IMG/VR virus record: IMGVR_UViG_3300021958_011541
Span: 1 to 64,000 of that record
DNA: 64,000 nt
Source of the DNA: a virus
Lineage: Duplodnaviria; Caudoviricetes
Direction: 5' to 3' (one strand)
The stretch's first letter is position 1. Each line of letters starts with the position of its first letter. A model generated the notes under the pieces. It worked only from the letters and a program-made list of their open reading frames with translations, searched no databases and was not told where the DNA came from. The position numbers and the translations under genes were made by a program. Below, piece after piece: positions 2,394 through 25,363 of this stretch.

Positions 2394-3025
2394 ATCGAAT
2401 GAGTGTAATGGTTTGCATGAGTTCCAGAGCCATTTCCAAATTCAGACATATTAAAAATATGTATATTACCTTTAAATAAATCTTTTTTTCTGAAAATCTC
2501 ATTTAACCTCTCTGGTCCAGTGTCCAGAAGAGGATTGTCGTGAACATTAAAAGCTAAAGAAATTTCATTTAAAATACATTTCAAATGATAAGATTGTTTT
2601 GGCGCTCCAAAAAACGCTTGCCCAATAACCCACTTGCCTTCAGAGTCTTCTTCGAAGCATTCGTTCCGCAATTCAATATTTCTATTTGCTTTGTAAGAAA
2701 CAAAATCGCAAGAATTAACTTTATCTGGCAGAGGGCGCGCAAAAATAAAGTCTAAATCCGCGTAAAAACCCCCAAAATTATAAATTAAAACATAGCGAAA
2801 AAAATCTACCTTTTTTATGTGGTGATCTAAGCAATGAAAGGTGTTTTTCCACAAAGAAGGCTGCGTATTCATATAAGAATGCATTTTCTCGTCTGTCCAT
2901 AATCTGTATCTGTAATCTTTAAAAAATTTAAGTATAGAATTCTTTGATTGCAGGCCTATTTTCCCATCTGAATAAGAAGAAAGTTCTTCTTCTCTCCAGG
3001 TTTGAAAGAAATTTTTTTGTATCAT
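2384..3025 (-). CDS. GT32 (OCH1-like, DXD) glycosyltransferase
   Basis: FFQTW, DFFRYVLIYNFGGFYADLD, TGP. Confidence 0.85.
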   Translation of the reverse strand: MIQKNFFQTWREEELSSYSDGKIGLQSKNSILKFFKDYRYRLWTDEKMHSYMNTQPSLWKNTFHCLDHHIKKVDFFRYVLIYNFGGFYADLDFIFARPLPDKVNSCDFVSYKANRNIELRNECFEEDSEGKWVIGQAFFGAPKQSYHLKCILNEISLAFNVHDNPLLDTGPERLNEIFRKKDLFKGNIHIFNMSEFGNGSGTHANHYTHSIWV

Positions 3026-3030
3026 ACCTA

Positions 3031-3609
3031 TTATATGCCTTTAGAAATTTTTTGCCAATGTTTTGCTTGAAGATTAAATTCTGGCAAAAACTTAATAACT
3101 TTATTTACGCTGTCTTTAGAGATATCAAAAATCAATAACCTATCTTTTTTATCCTTAAAGAAATCTTGAACTTCTTTTGAGTGATTTAAGAAATGAGATT
3201 CCCAATGTTTTATTAAATCTAATTTTGATATTTTAAGTATTTTTAAGCAATGATTCAGATATTTTCCATCGTCATGCTTTAGTCTTGAGTTTATCCATTC
3301 ATGCAAAGGTCTTATATTAAGAATGAATTTTGAATCTGGGAATTGATCAAATATTTCCCGATAAAATCTGTAAGAAAATATAGGCAAATAATTTGAACCG
3401 TAAACGTCTTCTAGGTCAGAAAAAAAAATAATATTTTCGTATTCTTTAGGAATGATTCTTTCTCCATTTAAAAAATTCGCAAGCATTTTTTTTGCAATTT
3501 TACCTTGATCTGTGTGCCAGTGCAGAGCGGGAACTGAATTGTCTGCAAAAAACCTATAAAGCGATCTTGTTCCACATTTATTAAAACCTACCTGAAATAC
3601 TTTATTCAT
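3031..3609 (-). CDS. Sulfotransferase-family protein (P-loop type, Sulfotransfer_4-like)
   Basis: KVFQVGFNKCGTRSL, FPDSKFILNIRPLHEWINS. Confidence 0.75.
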   Translation of the reverse strand: MNKVFQVGFNKCGTRSLYRFFADNSVPALHWHTDQGKIAKKMLANFLNGERIIPKEYENIIFFSDLEDVYGSNYLPIFSYRFYREIFDQFPDSKFILNIRPLHEWINSRLKHDDGKYLNHCLKILKISKLDLIKHWESHFLNHSKEVQDFFKDKKDRLLIFDISKDSVNKVIKFLPEFNLQAKHWQKISKGI

Positions 3610-4336
3610 CTAAGATTATGTACTTTTCTAGGTAGTTATAATATGCGAGGTAATCATCTATAAAAACAAAATTATCTTTAGACTTTAAGAACACCTCTTC
3701 AAGGAAAATGCCGTCTGCATTGTAGGCGTTTTCTGGGAAGCGGGAGTCACCGATTAGACCACGATCTATACAACACATGGAACTATCTATGTGATCAACT
3801 TTAGGGCTACATGGATAAAGACAATGTTCGTGGTCTTTTACACCTTTTAAAAGTTCTAAATAATTTTGAATAGCAAATTTAAAAGTGGGCACTCCAGACC
3901 TAGTAACTTTCTTGGTCTGATGTAAACCTAATAAAAAAAGATGCCATTCATTTTTAAATTTTCGTATAACTATAGGCTCTGCAGGAGTAAATTTACTTAA
4001 AAAAGAGTAAAATCTATTTGTTTGAAATAAACCAAAGTGCGCCCAAAATTTTGGATTAAATATATTATCGTCATCCAAGAAGTAAACTAAACCTGTTTTT
4101 ATTTCATTCAAGGCGAGATTTCTTAAACTGTTGCCCACAAAAGATTTTTCTAAAGCAAAATTCTGAATTATATTTATTCCGCCGTATGTTTCTGGCATTT
4201 CTACGTAAGGCTTAACTCCATAATCATATACTATATACCAGTAAACCTCCGTATCGTCTGGTTTCTGTATGCTTTTAAGTAAAAATTTTAAGTTCCCTGG
4301 CCTGGAGCATGGAGTAACAATATTTAAAATTTTCAT
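3602..4336 (-). CDS. GT2-like (GT-A) glycosyltransferase
   Basis: IVTPCSRP, RNLAL, VYFLDDDN, IDSS, YNADG. Confidence 0.7.
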   Translation of the reverse strand: MKILNIVTPCSRPGNLKFLLKSIQKPDDTEVYWYIVYDYGVKPYVEMPETYGGINIIQNFALEKSFVGNSLRNLALNEIKTGLVYFLDDDNIFNPKFWAHFGLFQTNRFYSFLSKFTPAEPIVIRKFKNEWHLFLLGLHQTKKVTRSGVPTFKFAIQNYLELLKGVKDHEHCLYPCSPKVDHIDSSMCCIDRGLIGDSRFPENAYNADGIFLEEVFLKSKDNFVFIDDYLAYYNYLEKYIILDE

Positions 4337-4353
4337 AAAGCCTAAAGAACTTT

Positions 4354-4536
4354 TTATTCACCATTTAAAAATTTATATAGTACTTGAAATTCGTTTAACC
4401 CAATGTATTTTACGAAATACAAACAAAACTCCGCTAATCTCGCGTGACTCCAATCTTCGGAAAAAATAATCTCTCCCACTTCAAAGTAATCTCCATCTTG
4501 CCATAGCTCCGTTAATTTTATAAATTCAGTCTTCAT
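4354..4536 (-). CDS. Hypothetical phage protein
   Basis: Tightly packed ORF in the dominant orientation. Confidence 0.55.
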   Translation of the reverse strand: MKTEFIKLTELWQDGDYFEVGEIIFSEDWSHARLAEFCLYFVKYIGLNEFQVLYKFLNGE

Positions 4537-4735
4537 ATTTTTTAATTAATTCCCATTTGTTAGAATACCTATTGTAGCACTCTATTGAAATAGTTGCAAC
4601 GTCTAAATGTTTTTTTGAGGTTATATAATCATGAAAAGATAGAGCTTCCTCGGCTCCTTCTGCCATATAATAATGATAGCTTGTTTTAATGGCATGATCA
4701 TGCCTATACTTAATTCTGTACTCCTCTAAAGCCAT
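4526..4735 (-). CDS. Hypothetical phage protein
   Basis: Overlapping start/stop with neighbours. Confidence 0.55.
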   Translation of the reverse strand: MALEEYRIKYRHDHAIKTSYHYYMAEGAEEALSFHDYITSKKHLDVATISIECYNRYSNKWELIKKYED

Positions 4736-5052
4736 GGTTGATTATTAAATACCGTTTCTTCTTTAAGTGATTGTATATAATCCATTGCATACTTAATTGC
4801 TAAGATTTGATTCTTGATAGATTCTAATTTTACAGGATCATCTGTTTCTATGCAAGAATAATTATTCAAAAGATCTCCAAGTGCTCCAATACAAAATCGC
4901 ATGCCTTCTTGGCGGCCCTTGGCGTAATTTAAGTCCAACTCTTCTTTGTGCAACTCCGTGCTAAAATTATTTGCTATTAAATCTTCTTCCGCTTCGGAAT
5001 ATCCATCATTAAAACCTCTAAGATATTCTTCTGAAAAGTCTTCTGAATCCAT
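4726..5052 (-). CDS. Hypothetical protein
   Basis: ORF with YxxGFxDGY-type repeats; C-terminus resembles that of 15662-15976 (IxAIKYxxDY). Confidence 0.55.
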   Translation of the reverse strand: MDSEDFSEEYLRGFNDGYSEAEEDLIANNFSTELHKEELDLNYAKGRQEGMRFCIGALGDLLNNYSCIETDDPVKLESIKNQILAIKYAMDYIQSLKEETVFNNQPWL

Positions 5053-5053
5053 T

Positions 5054-5719
5054 TTACTGTTCTATAAAAATAAAATTAGCGCCCGTTCCTGGCGAATTTA
5101 TATTCTCTCCACTTGAACTTCCAACAAAATTTGGACGAATTAAATAAATTTCATCTTTTTTAATTTCTCCCAAACTTAATGATTCTTGCAAACAATTGCC
5201 AAGACATATTTCTCCCGCATGCTCCGAAAGATCTAAAATATCGTTTGCGGGTTCGCCTGATGAGTTTTTCCGACCTGCAGAAACATCATAGTTCTTGATG
5301 TAATTCATCTGCCTCAGCCAAATGGGCGATCCTTTTACACTTGCAAAAAAACTATTTGTCATTCCGCCAAGATCTTGTTCGTTGGAAGCTAAAGAGCGAA
5401 GAACTAACTTGTGCCACTTGGGTATTAATGGATCTATGTTTCTTCGGAATTGTGTATTTATATCAGCATAAACTCCTCCATAGTGATGCATAATTGCAGG
5501 TATGGCCGCTTGCCATTTTTTTATTTGGGGATATAAATAAAACCAGGTTAGAAAAAAATCTGGATATTTACTTTGAATGAGGTCAAAAACATCATCTTCA
5601 GTCCAAAGCTTGTATTCCCAATCTGGATGAAACTTGAGGAAGTTTTGTTTCGCTAGATTGACTTTGTTTTCTGGCGATAAATGTGCTTGGTGTAATATTT
5701 GAGGAATTCTTTCTAACAT
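5054..5719 (-). CDS. GT32-like glycosyltransferase
   Basis: RIPQILHQ, HPDWEYKLWTE, HHYGGVYADIN. Confidence 0.8.
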   Translation of the reverse strand: MLERIPQILHQAHLSPENKVNLAKQNFLKFHPDWEYKLWTEDDVFDLIQSKYPDFFLTWFYLYPQIKKWQAAIPAIMHHYGGVYADINTQFRRNIDPLIPKWHKLVLRSLASNEQDLGGMTNSFFASVKGSPIWLRQMNYIKNYDVSAGRKNSSGEPANDILDLSEHAGEICLGNCLQESLSLGEIKKDEIYLIRPNFVGSSSGENINSPGTGANFIFIEQ

Positions 5720-5759
5720 ATATATTATATTATATATCGAATCATCAAAATATTAAACT

Positions 5760-7004
5760 TTAAGGCGATATTATCCTTCGTAATGCTGCTGTTATTTTTC
5801 TATCTCCTCTGTCATTTAAATGGTTCACATCTTTAGTGTCTTCAGGTTTTATGGTTTTAGACGCATTATAAAAACTAATTTCTAAATCTTGACAAAACTT
5901 TGAAAGGGTATCGATTAGCCGAGATCTATTAGGGAATTTATTAATATTAATGTGTGTGGTAATTATTAATTTTTTGCCTGCAGTTATTTGTTTTATAATC
6001 TTCAAATCATCATAAAGTTCTTGATCTGTTTGAATGCGGAAGTTGCCTTTATGATTTTCAGATCTCCCTGGCGCATCGCCACCATCAACAGCTAAATGAT
6101 GTAAATAAAACCCTTTTTCTTCGTAAATTTTGATAGAACAAATTTCAACGACAACTGTGTTAGAATGAGTATATTCATATAATAAAGAGCGTCTATTAAT
6201 AGAAATTAATGGCCGTTTTTTTTTGTTTTGAAGGTACTGCCTACGAAAAACTTTTGACTCTAAGTGGCTGGGTATATCTAAGTTGCCTTTAATATATTGA
6301 ATGTACTGAATAAACTCTTTAGTGTTATGAGTATGATGTATTCGATGATGATATGAGTCAGGGTTTAATGATTTATATCTACCTGATGTACTAATAAAGA
6401 TTGGGTCCTTCATCGCTTTTTCTCCAAATTTGTATCCAAGGTAATTAATATCTCTTTCGTATCTTTCGGCAACTATTTGTCTTGTTTCATTATCATAATA
6501 TTCTGTATAATCTTTTTTGTGAAATATTTGAACTTTTCTAGAATGAATGCTACTATCAATAGATACACCTATTTTCTCTGATATATATTCAAGGTCATTT
6601 GTTCTATTTTCGAAACGACCAATAAAATCTATTTGCTCGGGGTCAAAATAATCATGGAAGATTTCTCCTTGTTCATGACGTGGAGTTTTGTAATGTTCAA
6701 GAAAATATTTTAGCGATTTCCCTGCCTCCGCTCCAATTGCGGGCCCTCGTTTACAATGGCCAGAAAAGTAAGGGTCAAGATATTTTGATATCATCAAATC
6801 CCAAGGGTTTCTTACAAATGTAAATTTAAAATATTTATCAAACCGATTTTTTGGCTGTTTTTCTTTATACCAATATAAATTAAAATGCTTTCTATTTATA
6901 TCTTTATGAGAACTTCTGTTGCGGGCTTGAAAGAATGTTTCAATGCTTGTGCCGCCTGTTCTTGGGATATGAATGAAAATAAATTTATGCCTGTGATTAA
7001 TCAT
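5760..7004 (-). CDS. Sulfotransfer_2-family sulfotransferase fused to an unknown C-terminal protein
   Basis: FIHIPRTGGTS (5'-PSB), FVRNPWD (3'-PB), DFIGRFE, GYKFGE, then an internal ATG at 6413. Confidence 0.85.
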   Translation of the reverse strand: MINHRHKFIFIHIPRTGGTSIETFFQARNRSSHKDINRKHFNLYWYKEKQPKNRFDKYFKFTFVRNPWDLMISKYLDPYFSGHCKRGPAIGAEAGKSLKYFLEHYKTPRHEQGEIFHDYFDPEQIDFIGRFENRTNDLEYISEKIGVSIDSSIHSRKVQIFHKKDYTEYYDNETRQIVAERYERDINYLGYKFGEKAMKDPIFISTSGRYKSLNPDSYHHRIHHTHNTKEFIQYIQYIKGNLDIPSHLESKVFRRQYLQNKKKRPLISINRRSLLYEYTHSNTVVVEICSIKIYEEKGFYLHHLAVDGGDAPGRSENHKGNFRIQTDQELYDDLKIIKQITAGKKLIITTHININKFPNRSRLIDTLSKFCQDLEISFYNASKTIKPEDTKDVNHLNDRGDRKITAALRRIISP

Positions 7005-7111
7005 TCTAAGCGGGAATTAAATTATGTATATAAGTTTTTTTTCATTTCTTATAAGAAGATACACATTATTCTCTGTTAGTAATATAACACTCAATTGGAC
7101 TAAGTCATCTT

Positions 7112-7735
7112 TTATTCTCCAAATTTGTATCCAAAACGTTGAATATCTCTCGAAAATGCCGCAGCAATAATTTGTTTTGTTTCGTCATCATAGTATGATG
7201 CGTAGTGTTTGCGCTTTGTTTTGTTTAAATGCGGAAGTTTTTGATGACCAATTCCAATTTTTTCGCAGACAATGTCAAAATCTGCTTGAAAATTTTCGAA
7301 TTTTCCAATGAAATTTATCTTATCATTAAGCCAGTGTAACTGGCCATTATTTTGGTGATAGCATTCATTTATGAATGAGGAGTGTGTTTTTATGAAAAAA
7401 TTAAAACCCTTTTGTTTGAGTATGTGGCCGTATTTTTTTCTTATATTTGCCTTGGTATTTTGTACCCACCAATTATAAGAGGATACCATTAAATCCCATG
7501 GATTTCTCACAAATGCAAAGCAGAAAAAGTTTTGATGTTTCATGTCTAGCTCGTGCATTCTAGCATGCTTAATAGTCCATAACCTTGGATCTAGAACCTG
7601 GCACTCGCAACCCACTCTTCTTTCTTGCAAAGATTTGAATTCATTTCGAGATAAAACCGATGAAATCGTTGACCCTCCAGTTTTTGGTATATGTATAAAT
7701 GTCGCTTTATGTTTTTCACTGATCATTTTATCCAC
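7112..7735 (-). CDS. Sulfotransfer_2-family sulfotransferase
   Basis: FIHIPKTGGST, FVRNPWD, FIGKFE, GYKFGE*. Confidence 0.9.
   Translation of the reverse strand: MDKMISEKHKATFIHIPKTGGSTISSVLSRNEFKSLQERRVGCECQVLDPRLWTIKHARMHELDMKHQNFFCFAFVRNPWDLMVSSYNWWVQNTKANIRKKYGHILKQKGFNFFIKTHSSFINECYHQNNGQLHWLNDKINFIGKFENFQADFDIVCEKIGIGHQKLPHLNKTKRKHYASYYDDETKQIIAAAFSRDIQRFGYKFGE
7250..7317. repeat. 68-bp perfect direct repeat, second copy at 11013-11080
   Basis: aattccaattttttcgcagacaatgtcaaaatctgcttgaaaattttcgaattttccaatgaaattta, identical in two sulfotransferase genes. Confidence 0.9.
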
Positions 7736-7747
7736 TATTCCCGAATA

Positions 7748-8446
7748 CTATGATTTTAATAATTGTTTCTTTGGCCGCTTATACAAATAAGATGGTAGTC
7801 TATTGCTCCAGTCAGACAAAGCAGAGTGTGGTATTTTTTCATCTATTTGAACCATGTTATCTATAGTATATTTAATTCTGTCATCTCTGTCGTACAAGCG
7901 TGTTAGCGCTTTATGAGCTTCAAAATACTTAGATGGATTCACAACATTACCTCTAATTTTGCCAGTATTCCAATCTAATGGGCCAAATAGGAAATCATCT
8001 ATAAATTCATCGAGCCATGCTTTAATTAAATAATGCCTTTGAGAATTTGCTGCGAGAAACCAACTGGCGATTTCTCTTCGATATGACCGTTTTTTAAATC
8101 GATATGCAAAAAATCCAGTGTCGTTCAGTATATTATAAATAAAATGATCCAGTGGTAGCATTGGATACACGCTCGCGTCCGCCCAAATACCACCGTATTG
8201 ATTTAGTAATAATAATCTTATTAACTCACTCTTTGCCACAAGATTTCTGTCAAATTTGGATTCCTTGATAATATCAAAATATTTAGGAACATAGTTCGCA
8301 ATTGTTTTGTTTGAAAGAATATTTACTTGCCAGCCTGGATTAAGCTGTCTCCATTTTTTTATACATTCTTGATTTAATGGAGGCATACCAGTATCGTTTT
8401 CGCCCTGAAACCAACACATCCATATTGTTTTGTTCATCATAATCAA
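7748..8446 (-). CDS. Capsular polysaccharide synthesis protein (Caps_synth/GT32-like)
   Basis: TIWMCWFQG, SELIRLLLLNQYGGIWADAS, SWF. Confidence 0.85.
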   Translation of the reverse strand: MIMMNKTIWMCWFQGENDTGMPPLNQECIKKWRQLNPGWQVNILSNKTIANYVPKYFDIIKESKFDRNLVAKSELIRLLLLNQYGGIWADASVYPMLPLDHFIYNILNDTGFFAYRFKKRSYRREIASWFLAANSQRHYLIKAWLDEFIDDFLFGPLDWNTGKIRGNVVNPSKYFEAHKALTRLYDRDDRIKYTIDNMVQIDEKIPHSALSDWSNRLPSYLYKRPKKQLLKS

Positions 8447-8461
8447 AAAAAGAATATATCT

Positions 8462-9055
8462 TTATCCGAATGGAAAACCTTCTTTTAAATACTTCGCATG
8501 TTGTTCTGCATTGTAGTAATCCCAGCCTGTTTTTTCGCAAATTCTTTTAACTAATTCTAGGAAATATAACGCTTTAGGATGATATGCGTGATCTGTTGCT
8601 ATGGCATCTACCCCACATTCTTCTATAATTTTATGCGCCTGAATATCTAGATTAAACTTTTCCGCCCTTTCTTTCATGCCTAATAAACCCGTTATCTCTT
8701 CATATTCTTTTTTTTCTATCATGATTTTTTTATCTGGTTTTTGATAATAAAAGCAAGATATTGATATTAGTTTAGCATTATTTCTATATTTCTGAATATC
8801 TTCGTAATTAAAATATTTTAGTCTAGATGGCCTAATTGGTTGGTATATGATGTAGTCAGACTCTGCGAGTCTATTTTGGGCTTGATTGCAGTCTGCGATT
8901 GTTGGAGTGAGCCTACCTCTACAATAATTCTCTTTATGGTGCTGCCACGTTCCGATATCAATATATATATACTTAGTATCAAAACTTGGATCAAGCTGTT
9001 GAATGTACCAAGTCAGTGATTTTATTTGACAGTTTCCGATTAATGAAATTTTCAT
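8462..9055 (-). CDS. WcbI-like polysaccharide biosynthesis protein; likely start 9055
   Basis: N-terminal ISLIGNCQ, late HPK motif; the ORF-track extension to 9154 overlaps the upstream gene. Confidence 0.5.
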   Translation of the reverse strand: MKISLIGNCQIKSLTWYIQQLDPSFDTKYIYIDIGTWQHHKENYCRGRLTPTIADCNQAQNRLAESDYIIYQPIRPSRLKYFNYEDIQKYRNNAKLISISCFYYQKPDKKIMIEKKEYEEITGLLGMKERAEKFNLDIQAHKIIEECGVDAIATDHAYHPKALYFLELVKRICEKTGWDYYNAEQHAKYLKEGFPFG

Positions 9056-9077
9056 ATATAAATATATAATTATATAA

Positions 9078-9662
9078 TTATTCTCCGAATTTATACCCAA
9101 AATACTCAATATCTTTGGCGTATTTTTCCGAAACGATTTGCTTCGTTTCTTCATCGTAGTATTCGGCGTAGTGTTTGTGTTTGCTTTTGTTTAAATGTGG
9201 AAGTTTTTGTCGTGGAATTCCAACCTCGTCGCAAAAAGATGCAAAATCTGAAGCTAGATTTTCGTGCCTAAGTATACCAATTTTCTTGCCCCCGAAATAT
9301 TGATAATAGTTTATATCCATCCATTGATTGGAGAGTTTTAAGAAATCAAGAAATGATTCATTCTCTTGCAAGAATCTTCTGCGCCATAGCCACCAAGAAA
9401 CCATTCTTTCATATGGATTGCGTACTACTCCGTACAGTTTATATGTATTTATATAATCACTTGAATACGTTTTAAGTTCCGTGTGCTTTCTGTGCTCACT
9501 AGATCCATTCTCTAAAAAATCAAATGTACCAAGTGTCGGCTGATCGATTATCTTAGAGATATCTACAAAATCCATTAGCGCTTTAACCAAGGTTGTTGAT
9601 GCCGTCTTTGGTGGTAGTATTAGAATAAATTTATGTTTGTGAGATATCATTTTAGTATCCAA
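9078..9662 (-). CDS. Sulfotransfer_2-family sulfotransferase
   Basis: PPKTASTT, VVRNPYER, GYKFGE*. Confidence 0.85.
   Translation of the reverse strand: MDTKMISHKHKFILILPPKTASTTLVKALMDFVDISKIIDQPTLGTFDFLENGSSEHRKHTELKTYSSDYINTYKLYGVVRNPYERMVSWWLWRRRFLQENESFLDFLKLSNQWMDINYYQYFGGKKIGILRHENLASDFASFCDEVGIPRQKLPHLNKSKHKHYAEYYDEETKQIVSEKYAKDIEYFGYKFGE
9156..9223. repeat. 68-bp near-perfect direct repeat (2 mismatches), second copy at 10953-11020
   Basis: gtagtattcgg(c/t)gtagtgtttgtgtttgcttttgt(t/a)taaatgtggaagtttttgtcgtggaattccaa. Confidence 0.85.
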
Positions 9663-10309
9663 AGGTTTTTGTATTTTAAAAATTTCTCACGATTAATCTG
9701 TTTTGGTAAGAGTGGGTGAGCGACATATGTTTTTTCATCATGAGGTTGAGCTCTTGATACAATTGATTGATCTAAAGTTTTTAATTTTAAATTCTCATAT
9801 TCTGGATTATTAAAGAGTTCTAGATTAAATTCTTTTTGGTCGTCAAAGTTATCCTGTATGTCTTTATTTAAAATATTTTCAAATAACTGCTTAACGATAG
9901 TAGATGATTTATAGTATATCCACCCCATGCATAATGTATGTCCAATCTTTTCGTAAATATTTTGTGGGAATGTTCCTGTCGATGCAACAATATCATAATC
10001 TTTTTCTATAAAAATTAATGGATTTTTAAGCCAAATTGCATCAAGGTCAGAGTGTAAAACATTTATGCCTTCATTTAATAATTTAAAAATCGACTTTAAT
10101 CTTTTTCTCCAGCTCCATAAATGAGCTTCCCCTTTAAAAATATCTAAAGGTAATAATTCAGTGTTAATTTCATTTTCAACTAAATAATCATATATATCTT
10201 GATCTAAGGAATATATTGTATAGTTTTCAATTCCATGGCGATGCAAATAAAGAGCCCAATTGTGAGCTATTCTTTTGTATTTACTATCCCCGAATGCGAT
10301 TATTTTCAT
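9647..10309 (-). CDS. Nucleotide-diphospho-sugar transferase (GT77-like); likely start 10309
   Basis: VLHSDLDAIWLKNP, LCMGWIY, DDQKEFN. Confidence 0.75.
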   Translation of the reverse strand: MKIIAFGDSKYKRIAHNWALYLHRHGIENYTIYSLDQDIYDYLVENEINTELLPLDIFKGEAHLWSWRKRLKSIFKLLNEGINVLHSDLDAIWLKNPLIFIEKDYDIVASTGTFPQNIYEKIGHTLCMGWIYYKSSTIVKQLFENILNKDIQDNFDDQKEFNLELFNNPEYENLKLKTLDQSIVSRAQPHDEKTYVAHPLLPKQINREKFLKYKNLWILK

Positions 10310-10313
10310 AATT

Positions 10314-10871
10314 TCATTCTCCAAATTTATATCCAAAATACTCTATATCCTTTGCGTATTTTTGTGCAACAATCTCGCGAGTTTCGTCATCATAGTATTC
10401 GGTGTAGTGTTTGTGTTTTGATTTATTCGTGTGGGAAAGCTTTCGACGCGGAATTCCAATTTTGTCACAGGCTGTATTGAAATCTCTCTGGAGTTTTTCA
10501 AATTTTATTATATAATTCAAACTTATTTTACCACCTACTCTTATTCCATTATAGTTAAGGGCATTCGGTCGTTGACTAAAGGTATATAAATATTCTTTAA
10601 AACCATTTTGACAGTAGTCATTATCAATATGTTGAGGCTGTTGTTTTATAAATGTATACCTTGAAACTTCACGATCCCAAGGGTTTCGTACAGCTCCAAA
10701 TTTAAAATAAGATTGAAACACTTCTTCCGATAAACTTTCCTTAATTTCAGATATACCTGCGTGATGAGGATTGTGTAGTTCGTCATACTCGCGATAAAAC
10801 GCAGTCCGAATAGTTGTCCCTGCTGTTTTTGGAATGTGAACAAATATAAATTGATGCCTATGACTTATCAT
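10314..10871 (-). CDS. Sulfotransfer_2-family sulfotransferase
   Basis: FVHIPKTAGTT, VRNPWDR, GYKFGE*. Confidence 0.9.
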   Translation of the reverse strand: MISHRHQFIFVHIPKTAGTTIRTAFYREYDELHNPHHAGISEIKESLSEEVFQSYFKFGAVRNPWDREVSRYTFIKQQPQHIDNDYCQNGFKEYLYTFSQRPNALNYNGIRVGGKISLNYIIKFEKLQRDFNTACDKIGIPRRKLSHTNKSKHKHYTEYYDDETREIVAQKYAKDIEYFGYKFGE

Positions 10872-10874
10872 TTC

Positions 10875-11564
10875 TCATTCTCCAAATTCGTATCCAAAAT
10901 ACTCAATGTCTCGTACATACCTTTGCGCTACAATCTCACGAGTTTTACCGTTGTAGTATTCGGTGTAGTGTTTGTGTTTGCTTTTGTATAAATGTGGAAG
11001 TTTTTGTCGTGGAATTCCAATTTTTTCGCAGACAATGTCAAAATCTGCTTGAAAATTTTCGAATTTTCCAATGAAATTTAGATCTTTTATGTTTCCTAGT
11101 TGAGCTTCAAATTTATAAACTTGAGATTCCCAATGTGCGTCGTGAATCCGCAAAGTAAAATTTACAAAAGCTCGAAAAGAAAATTTATTTGGGTCAATAG
11201 GTTTTTTACCATAAAACGAAAGTATGTTGTGGTCTTCTGCTGGAAAATCGCCTATTTTTATTTCTTTTTTATTTATTTTTGCAATTATTTCATGTAGATG
11301 CGCAAACCTTGAAACCAGTCGATCGTAAGGATTTCTGACGAATGTAAAAATATAATCAAAATTTTTCTTTTTAAAAGGGTACCAGTCTCTTGCGCTGAAT
11401 TCATGTTTGTAAAGAGTCGTAACTATTGAAGTACATGCCGCTTTGTGATTTACTACGTATGCAGCTTTTTTTTCTTGATTGAGCGAACCAAATATTTTAT
11501 TTTTATATTCCATATCAAAATTCGTATTCAAATGTTTCAATATCTCTTGCGTATTTTTCAGCAA
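10875..11564 (-). CDS. Sulfotransfer_2-family sulfotransferase
   Basis: NHKAACTS, FVRNPYDRLVS, HW.SQ, FIGKFE, GYEFGE*. Confidence 0.85.
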   Translation of the reverse strand: MLKNTQEILKHLNTNFDMEYKNKIFGSLNQEKKAAYVVNHKAACTSIVTTLYKHEFSARDWYPFKKKNFDYIFTFVRNPYDRLVSRFAHLHEIIAKINKKEIKIGDFPAEDHNILSFYGKKPIDPNKFSFRAFVNFTLRIHDAHWESQVYKFEAQLGNIKDLNFIGKFENFQADFDIVCEKIGIPRQKLPHLYKSKHKHYTEYYNGKTREIVAQRYVRDIEYFGYEFGE

Positions 11565-12378
11565 CTATCTTTTTTGTTTCAGGGCTATAATACATTCTGT
11601 ATTTTTTATCTTCAGGCAAGATTAGTTTTTTCGAAGGTTTTTGACTTTTTCGCAAATAATTTGATCTGATTCTAAACCCTTCGTTAAAATGCGGAACCTT
11701 TCCAAGTTCAAGAGAGTTTATGTTGCAAAATTTTTCAAAATCTTTTTCGTAATTTTCAAATTTTCCTACAAAATCTAAAGCAAGTTGATAATTATTGTGA
11801 GTGAAACTATATTGATCTTTAAAGTGCGAAGCTCTGTTACCTGGCCCTTTTTTAAACTTAATATCTTGAAAAAAGCCTCGCTCTAAAAGAAAATCTTTTA
11901 AGGTATGGTTTTTAAATGATTTTCTTGATTCTCTACAAAGATAAGACCATTCAGAAACAGCCCTGCTCCAAGGATTTCTCACAAAAGCAAATTTAAAATA
12001 TTTATTCCAGGATTTTTTTGAAATCGTATTTATTATTTCTTTTGAAGTGAGATGCTGTAACCATGAATTAGTTGATGCTGACCAACCAACTAAGCGGCCT
12101 TTGTTAAGAAGTTGAGGATACCTATTTTCTTTAATTCCGCTTTCTATATAATGATTTTTACCCCACTCATGTTTTTTGTTTTTTGGATATTTAAATATAG
12201 GGACAGATATATTCTCAAAGTGATTTTTTAAGTCTGGAAAAAAATCTACATATTTTTTAAAGTCAAAATTCTCAATAAAATATTTTTCTATAAATTTTTT
12301 ATACAAAATGTTTTCAATGCTTGAGCCTCCAGTTCTTGGTATATGTATAAATATAATTTTTTCTGAATCTATTTTCAT
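11515..12378 (-). CDS. Sulfotransfer_2-family sulfotransferase
   Basis: FIHIPRTGGSS, FVRNPWSR, DFVGKFE. Confidence 0.85.
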   Translation of the reverse strand: MKIDSEKIIFIHIPRTGGSSIENILYKKFIEKYFIENFDFKKYVDFFPDLKNHFENISVPIFKYPKNKKHEWGKNHYIESGIKENRYPQLLNKGRLVGWSASTNSWLQHLTSKEIINTISKKSWNKYFKFAFVRNPWSRAVSEWSYLCRESRKSFKNHTLKDFLLERGFFQDIKFKKGPGNRASHFKDQYSFTHNNYQLALDFVGKFENYEKDFEKFCNINSLELGKVPHFNEGFRIRSNYLRKSQKPSKKLILPEDKKYRMYYSPETKKIVAEKYARDIETFEYEF

Positions 12379-12383
12379 GAAAG

Positions 12384-13103
12384 CTATAAAATATAGTTTA
12401 CGCCAAGTTTTTTGGTAAAAATAAAAACATTAATCATTCTTTCTAAAATAAAAGGAACAAAAGGCCAATAATTAAGACCTGTAGATAATTGTAAGCTTTT
12501 TGGAAAAGGCATAAAGTAATCTGAAGGAAGGTAAGCAAGATGCCTAACTTCTTCATCGTGTTTAATTAGTTCTATTGTCGGTTCTAAAAATTCATCAATG
12601 TAGGATCTTAGCACATGTTGTTTTGCCAAAAAAATATTTGTAAATATTTGAGTAATCGGTCGATCTAAATGATTTCCGTTGTTGAGATTCGGAATTTTTA
12701 ATTTTTTTAATATTAAATCCATGCATCTCCAGTAACCTGGAAATACAGGATGGCAATGAAGTATTCTTGGGTGTGCAGGACCTTGATTTAATTCTGACCA
12801 ATCATAAGAAGAAAGCTTTGGAGCTATTATATCGTGTGTGCTGGAATATTTATTCGCACATTTTTGGAGGTATTGAAGACTAAAATTTGGGTTTCTGGGA
12901 ATTTTTGATTTCACTTTCCAGGAAAAAACTCCCATCCAGTCAAAATCTACCCCTCTTTGCTTTGCACCTCTAAAAAGCTCAATTAGGACAGAGTTTTCGC
13001 AAAAAATTTCATTTTTTTGATTGAAAAAATGGTCAAATCCAGGCAGTAAGCTAGTTCGCTGAGATTGGTCGTAATAAATTTGGTAAGCGATTATTTTTTC
13101 CAT
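12384..13103 (-). CDS. Hypothetical glycan-cluster protein
   Basis: 239 aa ORF, YQIYYD start, PFILER end; family not assigned. Confidence 0.6.
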   Translation of the reverse strand: MEKIIAYQIYYDQSQRTSLLPGFDHFFNQKNEIFCENSVLIELFRGAKQRGVDFDWMGVFSWKVKSKIPRNPNFSLQYLQKCANKYSSTHDIIAPKLSSYDWSELNQGPAHPRILHCHPVFPGYWRCMDLILKKLKIPNLNNGNHLDRPITQIFTNIFLAKQHVLRSYIDEFLEPTIELIKHDEEVRHLAYLPSDYFMPFPKSLQLSTGLNYWPFVPFILERMINVFIFTKKLGVNYIL

Positions 13104-13261
13104 TTGCAGTAGCTTGGATTTTCTCTTCGTTTTTTTTGCATATACTCTCTTTTTTGTTTTCTGCGTCTTTCAATGTCAGACTCATCATATTTTGCCTGAG
13201 CCTTTTTTAAGGCTTCTTGACCCTTTGGGGTTGAGAAATACTTTTTTTGCCTGGATTCCAT
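13091..13261 (-). CDS. Small basic protein (56 aa), not in the ORF track
   Basis: MESRQKKYFSTPKGQEALKKAQAKYDESDIERRRKQKREYMQKKRRENPSYCKWKK; GTGTA motif 14 nt upstream. Confidence 0.6.
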   Translation of the reverse strand: MESRQKKYFSTPKGQEALKKAQAKYDESDIERRRKQKREYMQKKRRENPSYCKWKK

Positions 13262-13306
13262 AATTTTATATACACTTAAAATAAGTGTTAGTATGTATAT
13301 AGTCCA

Positions 13307-13435
13307 CTACCCTTTTTTTTTGTTTTTAATTTTTTTTTGGGGTCTTGGCTTTTTCCAGTTAATAGATTCGTAATTTGTTCTATATTTTTTAGAAAAATTA
13401 TTTCGAGGAGAATCTCCTTTGCCATTTGCACTCAT
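13307..13435 (-). CDS. Small basic protein (42 aa), not in the ORF track
   Basis: MSANGKGDSPRNNFSKKYRTNYESINWKKPRPQKKIKNKKKG; ATGA overlap with the upstream stop. Confidence 0.55.
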   Translation of the reverse strand: MSANGKGDSPRNNFSKKYRTNYESINWKKPRPQKKIKNKKKG

Positions 13436-13662
13436 AAAATTTGCCTGTGAATCCACAAGGTGCAAGAATTATTCTTGCGATCTTTTTGATATTGATCAAT
13501 AGAAAAATCATTTGATTCGCAAGCCAGCGAAAAATTCTGAAAGTCTTCTAGTTTTATAGTTAATTTCACTTCTTCAACTTTTATGAAGGTATAATCATTC
13601 TTCCTTACAAGCTTCTCAGAAACTTCTGAATTTGCACAATATTTTTCATAAAAAAACTTCAT
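13432..13662 (-). CDS. Hypothetical protein
   Basis: Packed ORF. Confidence 0.5.
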   Translation of the reverse strand: MKFFYEKYCANSEVSEKLVRKNDYTFIKVEEVKLTIKLEDFQNFSLACESNDFSIDQYQKDRKNNSCTLWIHRQIL

Positions 13663-13663
13663 A

Positions 13664-13906
13664 CTAAGCTTTTGTTAGCGAAATAATTCTATCGTGACGA
13701 AAAGATCTGTACTCTTTTCTTGCAAAACAAAAGGCTCTAAACCCAGCATTGTTTCTATGCTCGCTATTGTTTCCAAAAGATGCGTCTAATTTAGGCGTTG
13801 ATATTTCATAAGTTTTTACTTTGCCTTGAGAGTTTTTATAAACCAAAAAAAACTTTTTGGCTAAAAATTTATAATAAATAGAGTTTAATAAGTTTTGATT
13901 TTTCAT
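13664..13906 (-). CDS. Stand-alone WYL-like domain protein (80 aa); likely start 13906
   Basis: C-terminal FRAFC..RKEYRSFRHDRIISL resembles the WYL R-x-F-R-x-D-R-I motif; the promoter position fixes the start. Confidence 0.55.
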   Translation of the reverse strand: MKNQNLLNSIYYKFLAKKFFLVYKNSQGKVKTYEISTPKLDASFGNNSEHRNNAGFRAFCFARKEYRSFRHDRIISLTKA

Positions 13907-13912
13907 AAAAGA

Positions 13913-13941
13913 ATTATATTGAATAAGTAAAGTTAAGTCAA
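13913..13941 (-). promoter_or_regulatory. Sigma70-type promoter
   Basis: TTGACT-17 nt-TATAAT, 7 nt before the ATG at 13906. Confidence 0.75.
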
Positions 13942-14780
13942 GAAAATTGTGAGAAAAAACCAACCCTATGAATGTTACCAATCGGATTTGAATCTACAAT
14001 CGTATATTTTGGCAATTCATTTAATCCATGTGATTTATAGTGTTCTGAAACTTTTTCTGAAGTATCAAAAACAGAATCAAAATTATATACTCGAGATTTG
14101 TTTTGGTCAATATGATCTTGTTCATACCATTTTCTGTATTTGTTTACCGTTATCCCTTTCATTCCTACATCCTTTGGCGCATAAAAACGAGGGAAACCCT
14201 CCCATTTTGAGAAATTTTTTTCCATTATTCTTGAAAAATATTTTTGAGATGCATTATAACTCTTTAATTTCCAAACCTCCTCTGGAATCTTTCCTCCAAA
14301 TTCTAAATTCAACATTATTGGCTCATTAGATTTGTTGGTTATGGGCCAAAATTTTTTGTGAACGCTAAAAAAACTTAACCTTTTTTGAAAATCGGTATCT
14401 TCATAACCCCAACCACAATATTCATTGCTAAAACCATTTACGGCAGTAAAATCTGACGCAAGCATTTTAAATCCTCCCGCGCAAAGAAACCACCATTCTG
14501 GTTTATCTGAATATCTATAATCTATTCCTGACATCGGTAAGATATCAATATCATGGAAAACAAAATAGTCGCCTAAATTGTGTCTAATTGAGTAATCCGC
14601 GCCAACATTTATAGATAACCCTCTATTGAAGTAATGATCGTCTAGCTGTTCTGCCAAAATAACGCAAAAATCATCTTGAGTAAAATTGTTTTTATAGTGT
14701 AGATATTTTGTTAAACCCTTCAAGAATACGTCTAGAAAGGGTTTTCTGCCTCTATATGGAATAACAATTGAAAGTTTCAT
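13938..14780 (-). CDS. GT7-like (beta-1,4-galactosyltransferase type) glycosyltransferase
   Basis: IVIPYRGR, FNRGLSINVG, VFHDID, NGFSNEYCGWGYED. Confidence 0.85.
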   Translation of the reverse strand: MKLSIVIPYRGRKPFLDVFLKGLTKYLHYKNNFTQDDFCVILAEQLDDHYFNRGLSINVGADYSIRHNLGDYFVFHDIDILPMSGIDYRYSDKPEWWFLCAGGFKMLASDFTAVNGFSNEYCGWGYEDTDFQKRLSFFSVHKKFWPITNKSNEPIMLNLEFGGKIPEEVWKLKSYNASQKYFSRIMEKNFSKWEGFPRFYAPKDVGMKGITVNKYRKWYEQDHIDQNKSRVYNFDSVFDTSEKVSEHYKSHGLNELPKYTIVDSNPIGNIHRVGFFSQFS

Positions 14781-14796
14781 TCAAAGCTATTATAGC

Positions 14797-15237
14797 TTAT
14801 GAATCTTTCTGTGTCAAATATTTAATAGTTTTATCTATATCAGATATTATCTTTTTAATATCTTCATTATTTCCCCATTGAGTCATCTGCCATAAAAGCT
14901 CTGCGGCAATCTCAGCATTAGGTCGGTCGCAAGAATTTTTAAATTCCATACAAGCTATGTTCTCCCATTCGCAAACATCTAGACTGTAAACGCTTTCTGA
15001 ACCTTCTTCGTCTTGTTTGCAAATTTCTATTTCACCATTTTCATTTTCAAGTATATAAAGAAAAGCCGTAGAGACCTTTTTATCGCACCTTAAACTACAT
15101 AGGGAATCAACAGCTTTTTGCAATTGAAGGTCTACTTCTACTATAGAATTGGTAGAATAGTCTTGAAGGTGTTTTTTATAGACGGCATTAAAAATAGATT
15201 TATAATTTAAAGACTGAACTAAGTCTACTGCATTCAT
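14797..15237 (-). CDS. Hypothetical protein
   Basis: 146 aa packed ORF. Confidence 0.55.
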   Translation of the reverse strand: MNAVDLVQSLNYKSIFNAVYKKHLQDYSTNSIVEVDLQLQKAVDSLCSLRCDKKVSTAFLYILENENGEIEICKQDEEGSESVYSLDVCEWENIACMEFKNSCDRPNAEIAAELLWQMTQWGNNEDIKKIISDIDKTIKYLTQKDS

Positions 15238-15437
15238 ATTGGATCTTGAGTATTAAAAATAGGGGAAAGGTCTCTATTTTTATAATAATAAATTAATAAA
15301 TTTTGAGAAAGTATGGCTTCATGTTGAATAGATATAGTTTCTTTTAAATATTCTACCTCTTCTGTTTTTTTATGATAATCCCACAAAAAAAACGATGTTA
15401 CTAAAATAATTAGTATGGTTTTAATTTTTTCACTCAC
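15234..15437 (-). CDS. Small single-TM membrane protein
   Basis: N-terminal hydrophobic ILIILVTSFFLW; GTGTA motif 14 nt upstream. Confidence 0.55.
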   Translation of the reverse strand: MSEKIKTILIILVTSFFLWDYHKKTEEVEYLKETISIQHEAILSQNLLIYYYKNRDLSPIFNTQDPI

Positions 15438-15458
15438 TAAAGTAGTTACACAATATAT

Positions 15459-15689
15459 TTATTGATTTTCAAAATCTTTTATATTTAATGGAGGGCACAA
15501 TAAAACCAAGTCAACTATCGATTCACTTAAAACATCATCAATGTCTGGACTTTCTTTTGACATATAAATTGCCGCCCTAATTCCATCTTGATCGTACCAG
15601 TCTATTTTAAGTAAATGTCTTGATTCAATTTCTTTTGGAAAGGTATTATCAAAATGATAATTTAAATATTGTTCCCCGATGTCTTGCAT
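15459..15689 (-). CDS. Hypothetical protein
   Basis: Packed ORF. Confidence 0.5.
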   Translation of the reverse strand: MQDIGEQYLNYHFDNTFPKEIESRHLLKIDWYDQDGIRAAIYMSKESPDIDDVLSESIVDLVLLCPPLNIKDFENQ

Positions 15690-15976
15690 TGCTTTAACAT
15701 TAATTTTACGTAATCATAGGTGTATTTAATTGCAGCTATCTTAATGTCTAAAATTTCTATCTCTGTAGTTAAGAGTTCTATATGAGGAGAATCTTCTATA
15801 GATTGTTTTGAAGTTTTATTTTTAAGCATTTGATTAATTTGATCTTTAATTTCTTCAGAAGAAATAGAAATTAATTCTGCCTCTTTATCTTCAAGCATCT
15901 TTTGGTGAGCTTGAAGAACTTCTTGTATTAAAGATAATGCGTGTCTAGATTCTTCGTCTTTTTTTATATAAAACAT
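15662..15976 (-). CDS. Hypothetical coiled-coil protein
   Basis: Helical, charged ORF. Confidence 0.55.
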   Translation of the reverse strand: MFYIKKDEESRHALSLIQEVLQAHQKMLEDKEAELISISSEEIKDQINQMLKNKTSKQSIEDSPHIELLTTEIEILDIKIAAIKYTYDYVKLMLKQCKTSGNNI

Positions 15977-15993
15977 TTTTGGTTTAAAAAATA

Positions 15994-16225
15994 GGTGTGG
16001 GAAGGGATTACTGTATACCCTCAGCTTTCAGTGTGAACATCAGTTCTACGAGTTCCTACTTGCACTACGCTTGGACTGGGAATCCTGCCTCAAATCATTC
16101 GATTCATTGGCACGCCACCACAGAGAAACGTATACTTTATCTCGCTCACAACGAGATTATTCAGTCACCCACAGGAGATCTCCGTCGAGATTTCCAAAGT
16201 CATTAAAATGTTAAAGATCAATTAT
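15994..16225 (-). ncRNA. Candidate structured non-coding RNA (unassigned)
   Basis: GC-elevated intergenic segment after a sigma70 promoter. Hairpins AUCUC-GACG-GAGAU, AUCUCG-N7-CGAGAU, UGCC..GGCA, GAAC-UGAU-GUUC. Nested long-range pairs GUGGG/CCCAC, GUAUAC/GUAUAC, UUUC/GAAA, UGUG/CACA. Confidence 0.6.
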
Positions 16226-16231
16226 TCGTAT

Positions 16232-16260
16232 ATAATACGAAAACTAACTAGATTTGTCAA
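16232..16260 (-). promoter_or_regulatory. Sigma70-type promoter for the candidate RNA
   Basis: TTGACA-17 nt-TATTAT. Confidence 0.75.
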
Positions 16261-16495
16261 CATTTTTTTTGCAAAAATTAAAAACTAAAAATATATTTTT
16301 TATATGCTTTATAAAAACATAACTTTTGTTAAAGAAGTTTGGCGCTGGTTTGACTTTGTCCACCCTGTCTATTGATGACTGGGTTAAACTATTTAACATT
16401 GGACACAATAACTTAACTTCTCTTTCAGAAAGGAAAAGTTTTTTATTTTTAAAATAAACAAACCAAAAATCTTCTTCGTGGTATATATTTTTCAA
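16244..16495 (-). CDS. Hypothetical protein
   Basis: Packed ORF. Confidence 0.45.
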   Translation of the reverse strand: MKNIYHEEDFWFVYFKNKKLFLSEREVKLLCPMLNSLTQSSIDRVDKVKPAPNFFNKSYVFIKHIKNIFLVFNFCKKNVDKSS

Positions 16496-17013
16496 TGTAA
16501 CCTTGCATAACAGTGAACAATATTATTATGTAATAAAGACTCGTAGTAATCATAATTAAATAATTCTGAATTTGAATCTACATAATCTTTTGACTCCGCA
16601 AAATCTAAAAAATTTATAGAACCATCATTAAAAACTTGAATCGATTCTGTGTTTCTAACATGCTTAACTAAAATGTATACTTTTGTTTTAAATTTCATAA
16701 AGTTTGATTTGTTCATTATTCGCTTTTTAATTAAGTATTCTGCTACGGTTTGCGCAGCAACTTTTGATTTGTATTTAACTTTTTGATGAGTATTTTTAAT
16801 TAAACAGTAATACTCTTTATTTTCAAAACTTAAACCTACTAGCGCATGCGGAGCAGCGGTGTCAAAAGTTCCTGTAGGAGAAAAGCCCTGCCTGACTGTT
16901 TGAAACCTACTAAATACAGAGGCTCTTACTAGATTTGAAATAAACATAGCATTGTTTTTACCCCAATTTCTATCATTTATATTCTCTGTATATTTTGTAG
17001 TATATTCTTTCAT
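16492..17013 (-). CDS. Hypothetical protein
   Basis: 173 aa ORF with 4-nt overlaps to neighbours. Confidence 0.55.
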   Translation of the reverse strand: MKEYTTKYTENINDRNWGKNNAMFISNLVRASVFSRFQTVRQGFSPTGTFDTAAPHALVGLSFENKEYYCLIKNTHQKVKYKSKVAAQTVAEYLIKKRIMNKSNFMKFKTKVYILVKHVRNTESIQVFNDGSINFLDFAESKDYVDSNSELFNYDYYESLLHNNIVHCYARLH

Positions 17014-17732
17014 TTTGGAAGTTTTGAAAAATTCTGAATTTTTTGAATTATAAACTTCAAAATTTTGCTTCTTTTAATATCTGAATGATTAAAAAAGAAA
17101 GTATGTATCCCTTTTTTAACACTATCTTCATCATTGAAAATCTTAATGAAATCTGGTAAGCCACTTTTTCCGTTGATGTCACTTTGCATTGGATCTCCAC
17201 AAATAAACAAAGTGCAATTTTCTCCTATACGGGTAATAAGCGTAGTTAATTCTTTAAAAGAGAAATTCTGGGCTTCGTCAGCTATAATAATTTTGTTATT
17301 CCAGCTCGCTCCCCGAAGGAAATTAACTGGTAATGCGGAAATTCTACCTTTATTTAATAAATCAGTTTTAAGTGTGTTGTTTTTGGGCAGAACCTCATCA
17401 AGTTTATCGAGCAAAGGTAATATATAGGGGTTGAACTTTTCTTCTAAATCTCCAGGCAAAGCGCCCATGCCTTTGTCTGCGCTTTCAATTACTGTTCGAA
17501 TATATATTAAGTCTTTGTTTGGATCTGCAGAAAGCAAGCGCATAGCTGAGTAAACAGACATATATGTTTTACTTGTGCCTGCTGGTCCTGCGACCAACAT
17601 TACTTTGGTGTCTTCTGATAAACTTTTTTCTAGAAAACTTAACTGTTTTTCGTCAAGCTTGAGACAATTTACTGTTATAGTTTGTTCTAGTTGAGGTATT
17701 TGGAATGTTTTTTTCTTTTTAGAAACTGCCAT
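17010..17732 (-). CDS. phoH: PhoH-family ATPase
   Basis: AGPAGTSKT, GALPGDLEEKFNPY, FLRGAS, ADEAQN, TRIGE, GDPMQSD. Confidence 0.95.
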   Translation of the reverse strand: MAVSKKKKTFQIPQLEQTITVNCLKLDEKQLSFLEKSLSEDTKVMLVAGPAGTSKTYMSVYSAMRLLSADPNKDLIYIRTVIESADKGMGALPGDLEEKFNPYILPLLDKLDEVLPKNNTLKTDLLNKGRISALPVNFLRGASWNNKIIIADEAQNFSFKELTTLITRIGENCTLFICGDPMQSDINGKSGLPDFIKIFNDEDSVKKGIHTFFFNHSDIKRSKILKFIIQKIQNFSKLPK

Positions 17733-17741
17733 ATAAAAGTA

Positions 17742-17746
17742 TACAC
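17742..17746 (-). promoter_or_regulatory. Representative copy of the recurrent GTGTA upstream motif
   Basis: GTGTA lies 12-18 nt upstream of 11 start codons in the window (see findings). Confidence 0.6.
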
Positions 17747-17750
17747 ATTT

Positions 17751-17939
17751 TTACTTTAATGATATACCTTTTGATTCGCAAATTCCAACTGAATATCCAA
17801 CTTTATAGTTAAAGCAATTAATGTAACACGCCAGAGCCAAAATAATATAGGGTTCAAATTTATAGAAACCAAAATTTAAAAATAGCAATGCTCCTATAAT
17901 TAGGAATGGCATGAATTTATTTAATAAATAATTGGTCAT
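17751..17939 (-). CDS. Small membrane protein
   Basis: Two hydrophobic segments. Confidence 0.5.
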   Translation of the reverse strand: MTNYLLNKFMPFLIIGALLFLNFGFYKFEPYIILALACYINCFNYKVGYSVGICESKGISLK

Positions 17940-24929: not shown

Positions 24930-25363
24930 TGGTGGAGGTGGCGGGAGTTGAACCCGCGTCCTGATAGCCTTCAAGCTAACACGTCTACAAGTATAGTTAA
25001 TTTTTTTTATGGTTTTGATATTAACATCCAACCCTCTGTTTCAATTATTCACCTAGAACTAGGGCCCCCGAATACTCAGTGGTACAGTTTTTGATACAGA
25101 TAAACTTTTTCTGTTTTGCAGATCGATGACCCCTTTGCCTCTTTATCTGCGTCAAGAAGTAAGAGGCTAACAGCCTATGCTGCTAGGGCGAGCTTGCGGC
25201 TCTTGTAACCGAAGCGCTTTGCAGCGATACGATTTTTGAAGCCGAGAGCTCTAACATGTTTTTTAGCGCCATGTAAAGCTTTTGCACATTGATAGGGGAG
25301 CCGTAGTGCAATCTCCCTCTTGCAGTGTTAGAATTCAACTTCAGTCAAATCCAGAACACCCCC
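24930..25363 (-). ncRNA. ssrA: tmRNA
   Basis: 5' GGGGGUG-UUCUGGAUUUGAC; 3' T-arm GCGGG-UUCAACU-CCCGC then CACCUCC-A-CCA with G3:U70; pk1 (GGGAG/CUCCC, UUGCAC/GUGCAA); tag frame ends ...KLALAA-UAG at 25175. Confidence 0.95.

Follow-up and report, generated by a model that had tools for sequence, protein, structure and literature searches.

A manA-family RNA behind its own promoter and a boxA-like leader in an uncultured estuarine or marine phage

The window (the whole stretch of 64,000 nucleotides of phage DNA analysed here) encodes a manA RNA on its minus strand, at 15992..16192. The Rfam model of this family (RF01745) is matched over its full length (model positions 1-192) with 76.7 bits and an E-value of 1.7e-19, where the gathering score used as cut-off is 55.2 bits. 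The element is a genuine structured RNA, driven by a promoter of its own, and its family has already been catalogued. A short leader that resembles the boxA of rRNA operons lies between the promoter and the RNA. As the best explanation of this arrangement, to which we give a probability of about 0.6, we propose an RNA that is stable and free-standing, works in trans and is made like rRNA under boxA/Nus protection, and not a ligand-sensing switch of the next gene. The source is an uncultured estuarine or marine phage that encodes a DnaE-type polymerase and has a genome of about 130 kb.

A divergent member of the manA family

The manA RNA motif was described in T4-like cyanophages (Weinberg et al. 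2010, PMC2864571). Its structure was revised in Rfam 14.3, which lists 48 significantly covarying pairs at the level of the family (PMC7779021), and Rfam types it as Cis-reg. An earlier sequence-only reading of the window had taken this segment for a novel, unassigned phage non-coding RNA with its own promoter. The significant full-length match to manA refutes the novelty, by the very outcome that this reading had named as refuting, whereas the sigma70-type promoter and the same match bear out a phage non-coding RNA with its own promoter; manA was in fact among the Rfam families that this reading had proposed for checking. The conserved blocks of the family (the junction that follows P1, and the loops of GUGGUG and of the 3' hairpin) are aligned here with high posterior probability, and they are invariant or nearly so across 28 sequences. 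The 80-kb viral record from which the window comes holds one manA copy. In a blastn comparison of the element and the 8 kb around it with 50,697 phage records, nothing relevant was found.

Relatives were collected from IMG/VR with patterns of the RNA core and of the leader, and further ones from GTDB genomes; as many leader-bearing loci were retrieved by the leader itself, this part of the sample carries an ascertainment bias. Two loci, L021 and L093, were set aside as chance matches of the core patterns. Twelve related loci scored 73-88 bits as manA in the Rfam model, and cyanophage copies scored 114-137 bits, so that the RNA of the window falls into a divergent subgroup of the family.

The 3' end had also been called loosely tRNA-like. 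Its topology does recall a T-arm and acceptor stem, since the 3' hairpin leads into the 3' strand of P1 and then into a short single-stranded tail, and cyanophage copies of manA lie flush against tRNAs. A mimic recognised by tRNA enzymes, or else a new RNA class, is nevertheless very improbable: the manA match is full-length, the hairpin loop has 11 nt in place of 7, and the tail does not read CCA. The tRNA-like character also went unsupported by the searches, in which ARAGORN called only a tmRNA in the window and no Rfam model other than manA, including those of tRNA, tmRNA and RNase P, matched this segment at E<=1.

Structure and covariation

To assess the fold, we used 21 sequences of this manA subgroup, with 500 shuffles and slid controls. 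In the nested structure of the Rfam type, 95.2% of cells were paired and 20 pairs had changed on both sides, a level of pairing that was reached by none of the 500 shuffles, while the slid controls stayed at or below 51%. The covariation check among homologues that had been suggested earlier thus came out in favour of the nested manA structure. RNAalifold independently recovered P1 and the hairpins from the same 21 sequences. Thermodynamic stability alone was not significant (MFE z-score -1.57), and the significance of the fold therefore comes from homology and covariation.

Most of the helices drawn by eye in the sequence-only reading can be recognised in this structure. Its outer helix corresponds to P1 of the manA model (helix 2), UGUGGG (16173-16168) with CCCACA (16001-15996), which is 97.6% paired and nearly invariant. 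All five of its local hairpins are present, and four of them are well supported in the 21 relatives, the GGAUU/AGUCC hairpin being weaker at 74% paired. The 5' hairpin (helix 1) is 99% paired, with four pairs that changed on both sides. In contrast, the three inner pairings that had been proposed (GUAUAC/GUAUAC, UUUC/GAAA and UGUG/CACA) fail, as they are 77.6% paired, which equals the shuffle mean and is matched by 366 of the 500 shuffles; what the family forms instead is a 6-bp multiloop helix, ACGUUU/AAGCGU.

One helix of the consensus is not formed. This is the 7-bp helix that encloses a 4-bp hairpin in the 3' half of the model, in which four non-canonical pairs were flagged, and no alternative helix of at least 3 bp was found for it in the subgroup. 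The helix is peripheral, and a 2026 preprint on manA RNAs reports that peripheral helices vary between manA sets (bioRxiv 10.64898/2026.07.01.735769). Two further observations had been made from the letters and hold: the G+C content is raised (0.41-0.47 over 16000-16224 and 0.23-0.30 in the flanks), and no credible ORF is present, as none of at least 20 aa was found on the transcribed strand in 15985-16235, where ORFs are antisense only. The coordinates of the features are given in Table 1.

Table 1. Features of the manA locus in the window, in the order of transcription.
Feature	Position	Strand	Remarks
sigma70-type promoter	16232..16260	-	-35 TTGACA, 17-nt spacer, -10 TATTAT
17-nt leader	16205..16221	-	boxA-like element at 16209-16219 and spacer; proposed NusB/NusE loading site
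5' hairpin	16174..16195	-	9 bp, one mismatch, loop GACG; extends the first hairpin of the model
manA RNA (RF01745)	15992..16192	-	full model 1-192; covariation in 21 relatives
P1, 5' strand	16168..16173	-	pairs with 15996-16001
P1, 3' strand	15996..16001	-	comes immediately behind the conserved 3' hairpin (16004-16024)
U-rich tail after P1	15986..15991	-	shared across the subgroup; relatives continue with a terminator hairpin, which is deleted in the window
first downstream ORF, 104 aa	15662..15976	-	no family; starts 16 nt after manA

Promoter and boxA-like leader

The promoter that had been noticed in the sequence stands up well: it agrees with the consensus at 11 of 12 positions, and 2.5 kb of sequence contain no better site. 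Four syntenic relatives (L016, L024, L025 and L028) also have a promoter here. In the window, transcription would start near 16225. The promoter overlaps the 3' end of an 83-aa ORF on the same strand (16244-16495). This ORF has no family match and is probably a real gene, as it is conserved in L016 (48% identity) and L024 (41%).

The leader that follows is identical at 15 of 17 positions to the boxA and spacer of the E. coli rrn operons (PMC2724277, Table 1). In the gamma-proteobacterial boxA consensus, GYTCTTTAANA, the fourth base, C, is the critical one (Baniulyte et al. 2017, 10.1101/091223). The core of the leader agrees with this consensus at 10 of 11 positions, keeps C4 and has an A at position 2, where the consensus has Y. 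The element is promoter-proximal, lies within the transcript upstream of an untranslated RNA, and is unpaired in the MFE fold.

The leader precedes manA in more than 20 viral contigs. In one relative (G001, with a DnaE that is 67% identical) it is identical over its 17 nt, where the surrounding flanks do not align. Among the ten loci retrieved by the RNA core alone, seven carry G-N-TCTTTAA-N-A; of the remaining three, one has a one-off variant, another is truncated by the end of its contig and the third is without the element. The variation occurs at the degenerate positions of the consensus. One manA locus without a boxA is L019. The boxA stays beside the promoter even where 60-130 nt of other hairpins stand before manA, and in relatives a small hairpin is usually found upstream of it, as in the boxB-boxA order of rrn leaders. 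Exact matches to the 17-mer numbered 65, of which about 40 were taken as chance or unrelated matches, since they lie in apparently coding DNA of unrelated contigs.

The same 17-mer also occurs in another phage group (L027, L040, L045, L058, L072, L074 and L073), with a PhoH that is about 50% identical, and is followed there by a conserved stretch that is not manA. Over the 80-kb record, at 59% completeness, a search for NusB and NusG encoded by the phage itself found neither. Eight nucleotides of the leader are complementary to the start-codon region of the 104-aa ORF; this match was dismissed, as L024 does not conserve it and the leader is kept also where no such ORF follows.

Besides manA, the window has a single non-coding RNA gene, a phage tmRNA at 24930-25363 on the minus strand, and a second boxA-like site precedes it. 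This site (25380-25370) lies 6 nt before the 5' end of the tmRNA, matches the consensus at 11 of 11 positions and stands behind a promoter of its own (TTGACT/TATACT). Sites of this kind number only three on the minus strand of the 64 kb. The same arrangement of boxA and tmRNA was found in a related phage contig (L096), and no boxA precedes the tmRNA of another related phage (G003, L095). Stable RNAs of phages may share an rRNA-style leader.

The transcription unit in relatives and the loss of its terminator

In the subgroup, manA typically forms a transcription unit of its own. An intrinsic terminator follows within 175 nt in 21 of the 24 assessable loci, and a new TTGACA promoter stands after the terminator in 16 of them; in L082 the terminator lies at about +230. 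Relative G001 has this leader and RNA elsewhere in its genome and in the opposite orientation, followed by a strong terminator and then a new promoter. Conserved hairpin modules of 45-140 nt, which have no Rfam match at the gathering score, are present in some of the units, either between leader and manA (L024/L025, L042/L051/L034/L052, L050 and L069/L015) or after manA (L018/L070/L091/L082).

The window differs from this layout. In the syntenic loci L025 and L028 an intrinsic terminator separates manA from an ORF of the same family as the 104-aa ORF, and alignment with these two loci shows that a terminator segment of 25-60 nt is missing from the window (at 15977-15993) and from L024. No terminator-like site was found in the window between 15000 and 17500. 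Since L025 and L028 keep the terminator and the window and L024 are without that segment, this alignment marks the arrangement in which manA runs directly into the ORF as the derived state. As the terminator is gone, read-through into the downstream ORFs is likely in this phage.

What lies downstream bears on the suggestion that the RNA is a cis-regulatory leader, in which the fold would sense a ligand or condition and control the 104-aa ORF and the glycan genes behind it. The 104-aa ORF is followed on the same strand by ORFs of 76 and 67 aa, a DUF6557 gene and a GT7-like transferase gene, and a sulfotransferase/glycosyltransferase locus occupies 1410-13103 on the minus strand. Over 1410-14780 the co-directional minus-strand genes include at least four Sulfotransfer_2 genes and glycosyltransferases of the GT7-like, Caps_synth, Nucleotid_trans and GT1 types. 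These genes loosely fit the sugar-metabolism genes that have been reported downstream of manA RNAs (PMC2864571), and the Rfam typing of manA points the same way. A cis role is possible in this phage because no terminator separates the RNA from the ORF 16 nt downstream, and an ORF with a Shine-Dalgarno sequence lies about 20 nt downstream of manA in three cyanophage-type loci; no Shine-Dalgarno sequence is visible for the 104-aa ORF. The proximity that prompted the suggestion therefore stands, but the relatives speak against regulation as the primary role, as manA ends at a terminator in 21 of 24 of them and is terminated before the same ORF family in L025 and L028, and most relatives then add a new promoter. 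We also found no expression platform of a riboswitch: a terminator/antiterminator alternative is absent over 15000-17500, and no conserved pairing with the start region of the ORF occurs in the window or L024. The downstream genes differ among loci, and in cyanophages they are tRNAs. Thus, we consider a leader or riboswitch of this kind unlikely.

The cyanophage-type loci show another way in which manA is embedded. Here manA begins some 6 nt behind its promoter, and tRNAs lie 0-12 nt from the RNA on one or both sides (L007, L009, L008/L010 and L104). In the cultured cyanophage S-SSM6a (L104), the manA match ends where the annotated tRNA-Gly begins. This spacing of 0-12 nt implies that cyanophage manA RNAs would be released by tRNA-processing enzymes. 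The stretches 4480-5126 of L007 and 2478-2955 of L009 are of this type, and in L007 manA also adjoins a permuted tmRNA of the cyanobacterial type. The neighbours of manA in S-SSM4 and P-RSM1 are pstS and gp23, and no single downstream gene accompanies manA.

A further reading starts from the boxA. The rrn leaders, and the PUT and EAR RNAs of polysaccharide operons, are analogues that act by processive antitermination, and the boxA, perhaps together with the manA fold, could likewise modify RNA polymerase for read-through of the 14-kb glycan/sulfotransferase locus. The boxA-like element at the start of the transcript would suit this role, as would the loss of the terminator in the window and L024, which fuses the unit to a long co-directional operon. 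However, the unit of most relatives ends at a strong intrinsic terminator, with a promoter of its own for the next gene; a boxA also precedes the tmRNA, behind which there is no operon; and nothing links the manA fold itself to a modification of the polymerase. We therefore give little credence to an antitermination leader as the primary role of this RNA.

Phage, host and genomic context

The genes of the phage include a DnaE-type polymerase, a ClpC-like ATPase, the tmRNA, ribonucleotide reductase, DnaB and PhoH, and nearly all genes of the window lie on the minus strand. Judging by the gene set with the DnaE-type polymerase, ClpC and tmRNA, and by the lack of DNA similarity to cultured phages, this phage does not belong to the T4-like cyanophages. 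For a related record, 128.6 kb long, the completeness is rated at 95%. The order PhoH, 173-aa ORF, 83-aa ORF, manA and 104-aa ORF family is common to four phages. A first search for relatives of the 104-aa ORF came back empty, and its homologues were found later by local tblastn in loci that had been obtained otherwise.

We claim no host. Three MAG contigs carry the subgroup, with the labels Cellvibrionales, 'Rickettsiales' and Neomarinimicrobiota; these labels disagree, and the contigs are phage-like. One of them (L090) is a 210-kb contig (G002:C4) of a Cellvibrionales MAG, with a subgroup manA and its leader, a terminator, the next promoter, and a tmRNA of its own that is distinct from that of the bacterium. 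It looks like a phage genome that was binned with the MAG, which makes it a weak hint to the host at most.

Representation in RNA libraries

The stretch is present in estuary and marine metagenomes, and in one DNA run it is covered over the whole 2.8 kb around manA. In the metatranscriptomes of three studies, the contigs are confined to 15998-16184, 16013-16177 and 16030-16181. Each of the three aligns end to end with the window, has no loose ends and contains no joints, and the first shares a variant at 16114 with the DNA run. No RNA contig of the three RNA runs covers the flanks at 15000-15940 and 16222-17800, although such missing cover alone proves nothing. As these are assembled contigs and not reads, they do not give true ends or levels. 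The restriction of the RNA contigs to manA is a weak hint at a discrete, stable RNA.

A model for the manA transcript

In the explanation that we prefer, a free-standing trans-acting RNA, the host-type RNA polymerase would start from the strong sigma70 promoter (16260-16232), and the transcript would open with the boxA-like leader (16221-16205) and then fold into the manA RNA of about 200 nt (16192-15992). By its likeness to the rrn leader, the boxA would recruit host NusB/NusE, with NusA, NusG and SuhB, as on rRNA operons. The Nus factors would shield the untranslated, co-transcriptionally folding RNA from Rho and aid its folding. Its product is probably a homo-oligomeric RNA particle, by analogy with what has been reported in vitro for other manA RNAs. 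In the window and L024, where the terminator is lost, the promoter and boxA may also feed the 104-aa ORF and the glycan/sulfotransferase genes; in such a fused unit, manA would be cut out of the mRNA or outlive it.

The analogy with particles draws on the 2026 preprint, which describes other manA RNAs that form pentamer-based 8-, 10- and 60-mers in vitro (bioRxiv 10.64898/2026.07.01.735769). There, manA is still termed a putative cis-regulator and no biology is offered. ROOL and GOLLD are RNAs of phages and prophages that are often found beside tRNA islands and form RNA-only nanocages, and their function is unknown (Kretsch et al. 2025, PMC12286853).

On its own, the finding of a manA RNA in this phage is ordinary, as the family is known and the RNA is not new. 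The window contributes the loss of the terminator, the fusion to the glycan locus and a boxA in front of the tmRNA as well. Since 2010, manA has counted as an orphan riboswitch candidate, and in the 2026 preprint it became the first short natural RNA to be reported as a 60-subunit cage. The layout of promoter, boxA and RNA, in most loci with a terminator, and the tRNA arrays of cyanophages point to a stable, abundant, trans-acting phage RNA that is made like rRNA. These sequences also suggest that phages may borrow the Nus machinery of the host for their own structured RNAs, the tmRNA included.

More speculatively, and with clear doubt, the same view might be extended to manA as a whole family. 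Its members would not be riboswitches but stable phage RNAs, made with rRNA-style Nus antitermination. Inside infected cells they would assemble into cages, as smaller equivalents of ROOL and GOLLD, and they would be released either through a promoter and terminator of their own or through the processing of tRNAs. In the phage studied here, the boxA unit would in addition be fused to, and drive, a 14-kb glycan-sulfation operon.

Comparison with known systems

With the manA RNAs of Rfam, the RNA described here shares the conserved blocks, P1, the hairpins, and its phage and marine origin. It differs from them in belonging to a subgroup with lower scores than the cyanophage copies, without the consensus 7-bp helix and with a longer 5' hairpin, and this subgroup occurs in phages with a DnaE-type polymerase and not in T4-like cyanophages. 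Whereas Rfam lists the family as Cis-reg, the subgroup is organised as a unit of promoter, boxA, RNA and terminator, of which the terminator is missing in the window.

Similar to the rrn leader with its boxA/Nus complex, a near-consensus boxA and spacer stand just after the promoter and before structured RNAs, here manA and the tmRNA. Unlike in rRNA operons, the candidate boxA of manA is located in a phage, precedes an RNA of 200 nt and has an A at position 2.

By analogy, ROOL and GOLLD appear to be the nearest counterparts of manA. Like them, manA RNAs are borne by phages, lie in tRNA arrays in cyanophages and have been reported, in the preprint, to form cages of 8, 10 and 60 subunits. Unlike them, manA has about 200 nt and not about 580 to more than 800 nt, and has no sequence or Rfam relationship to either; the copy in this window, moreover, does not lie beside tRNAs.
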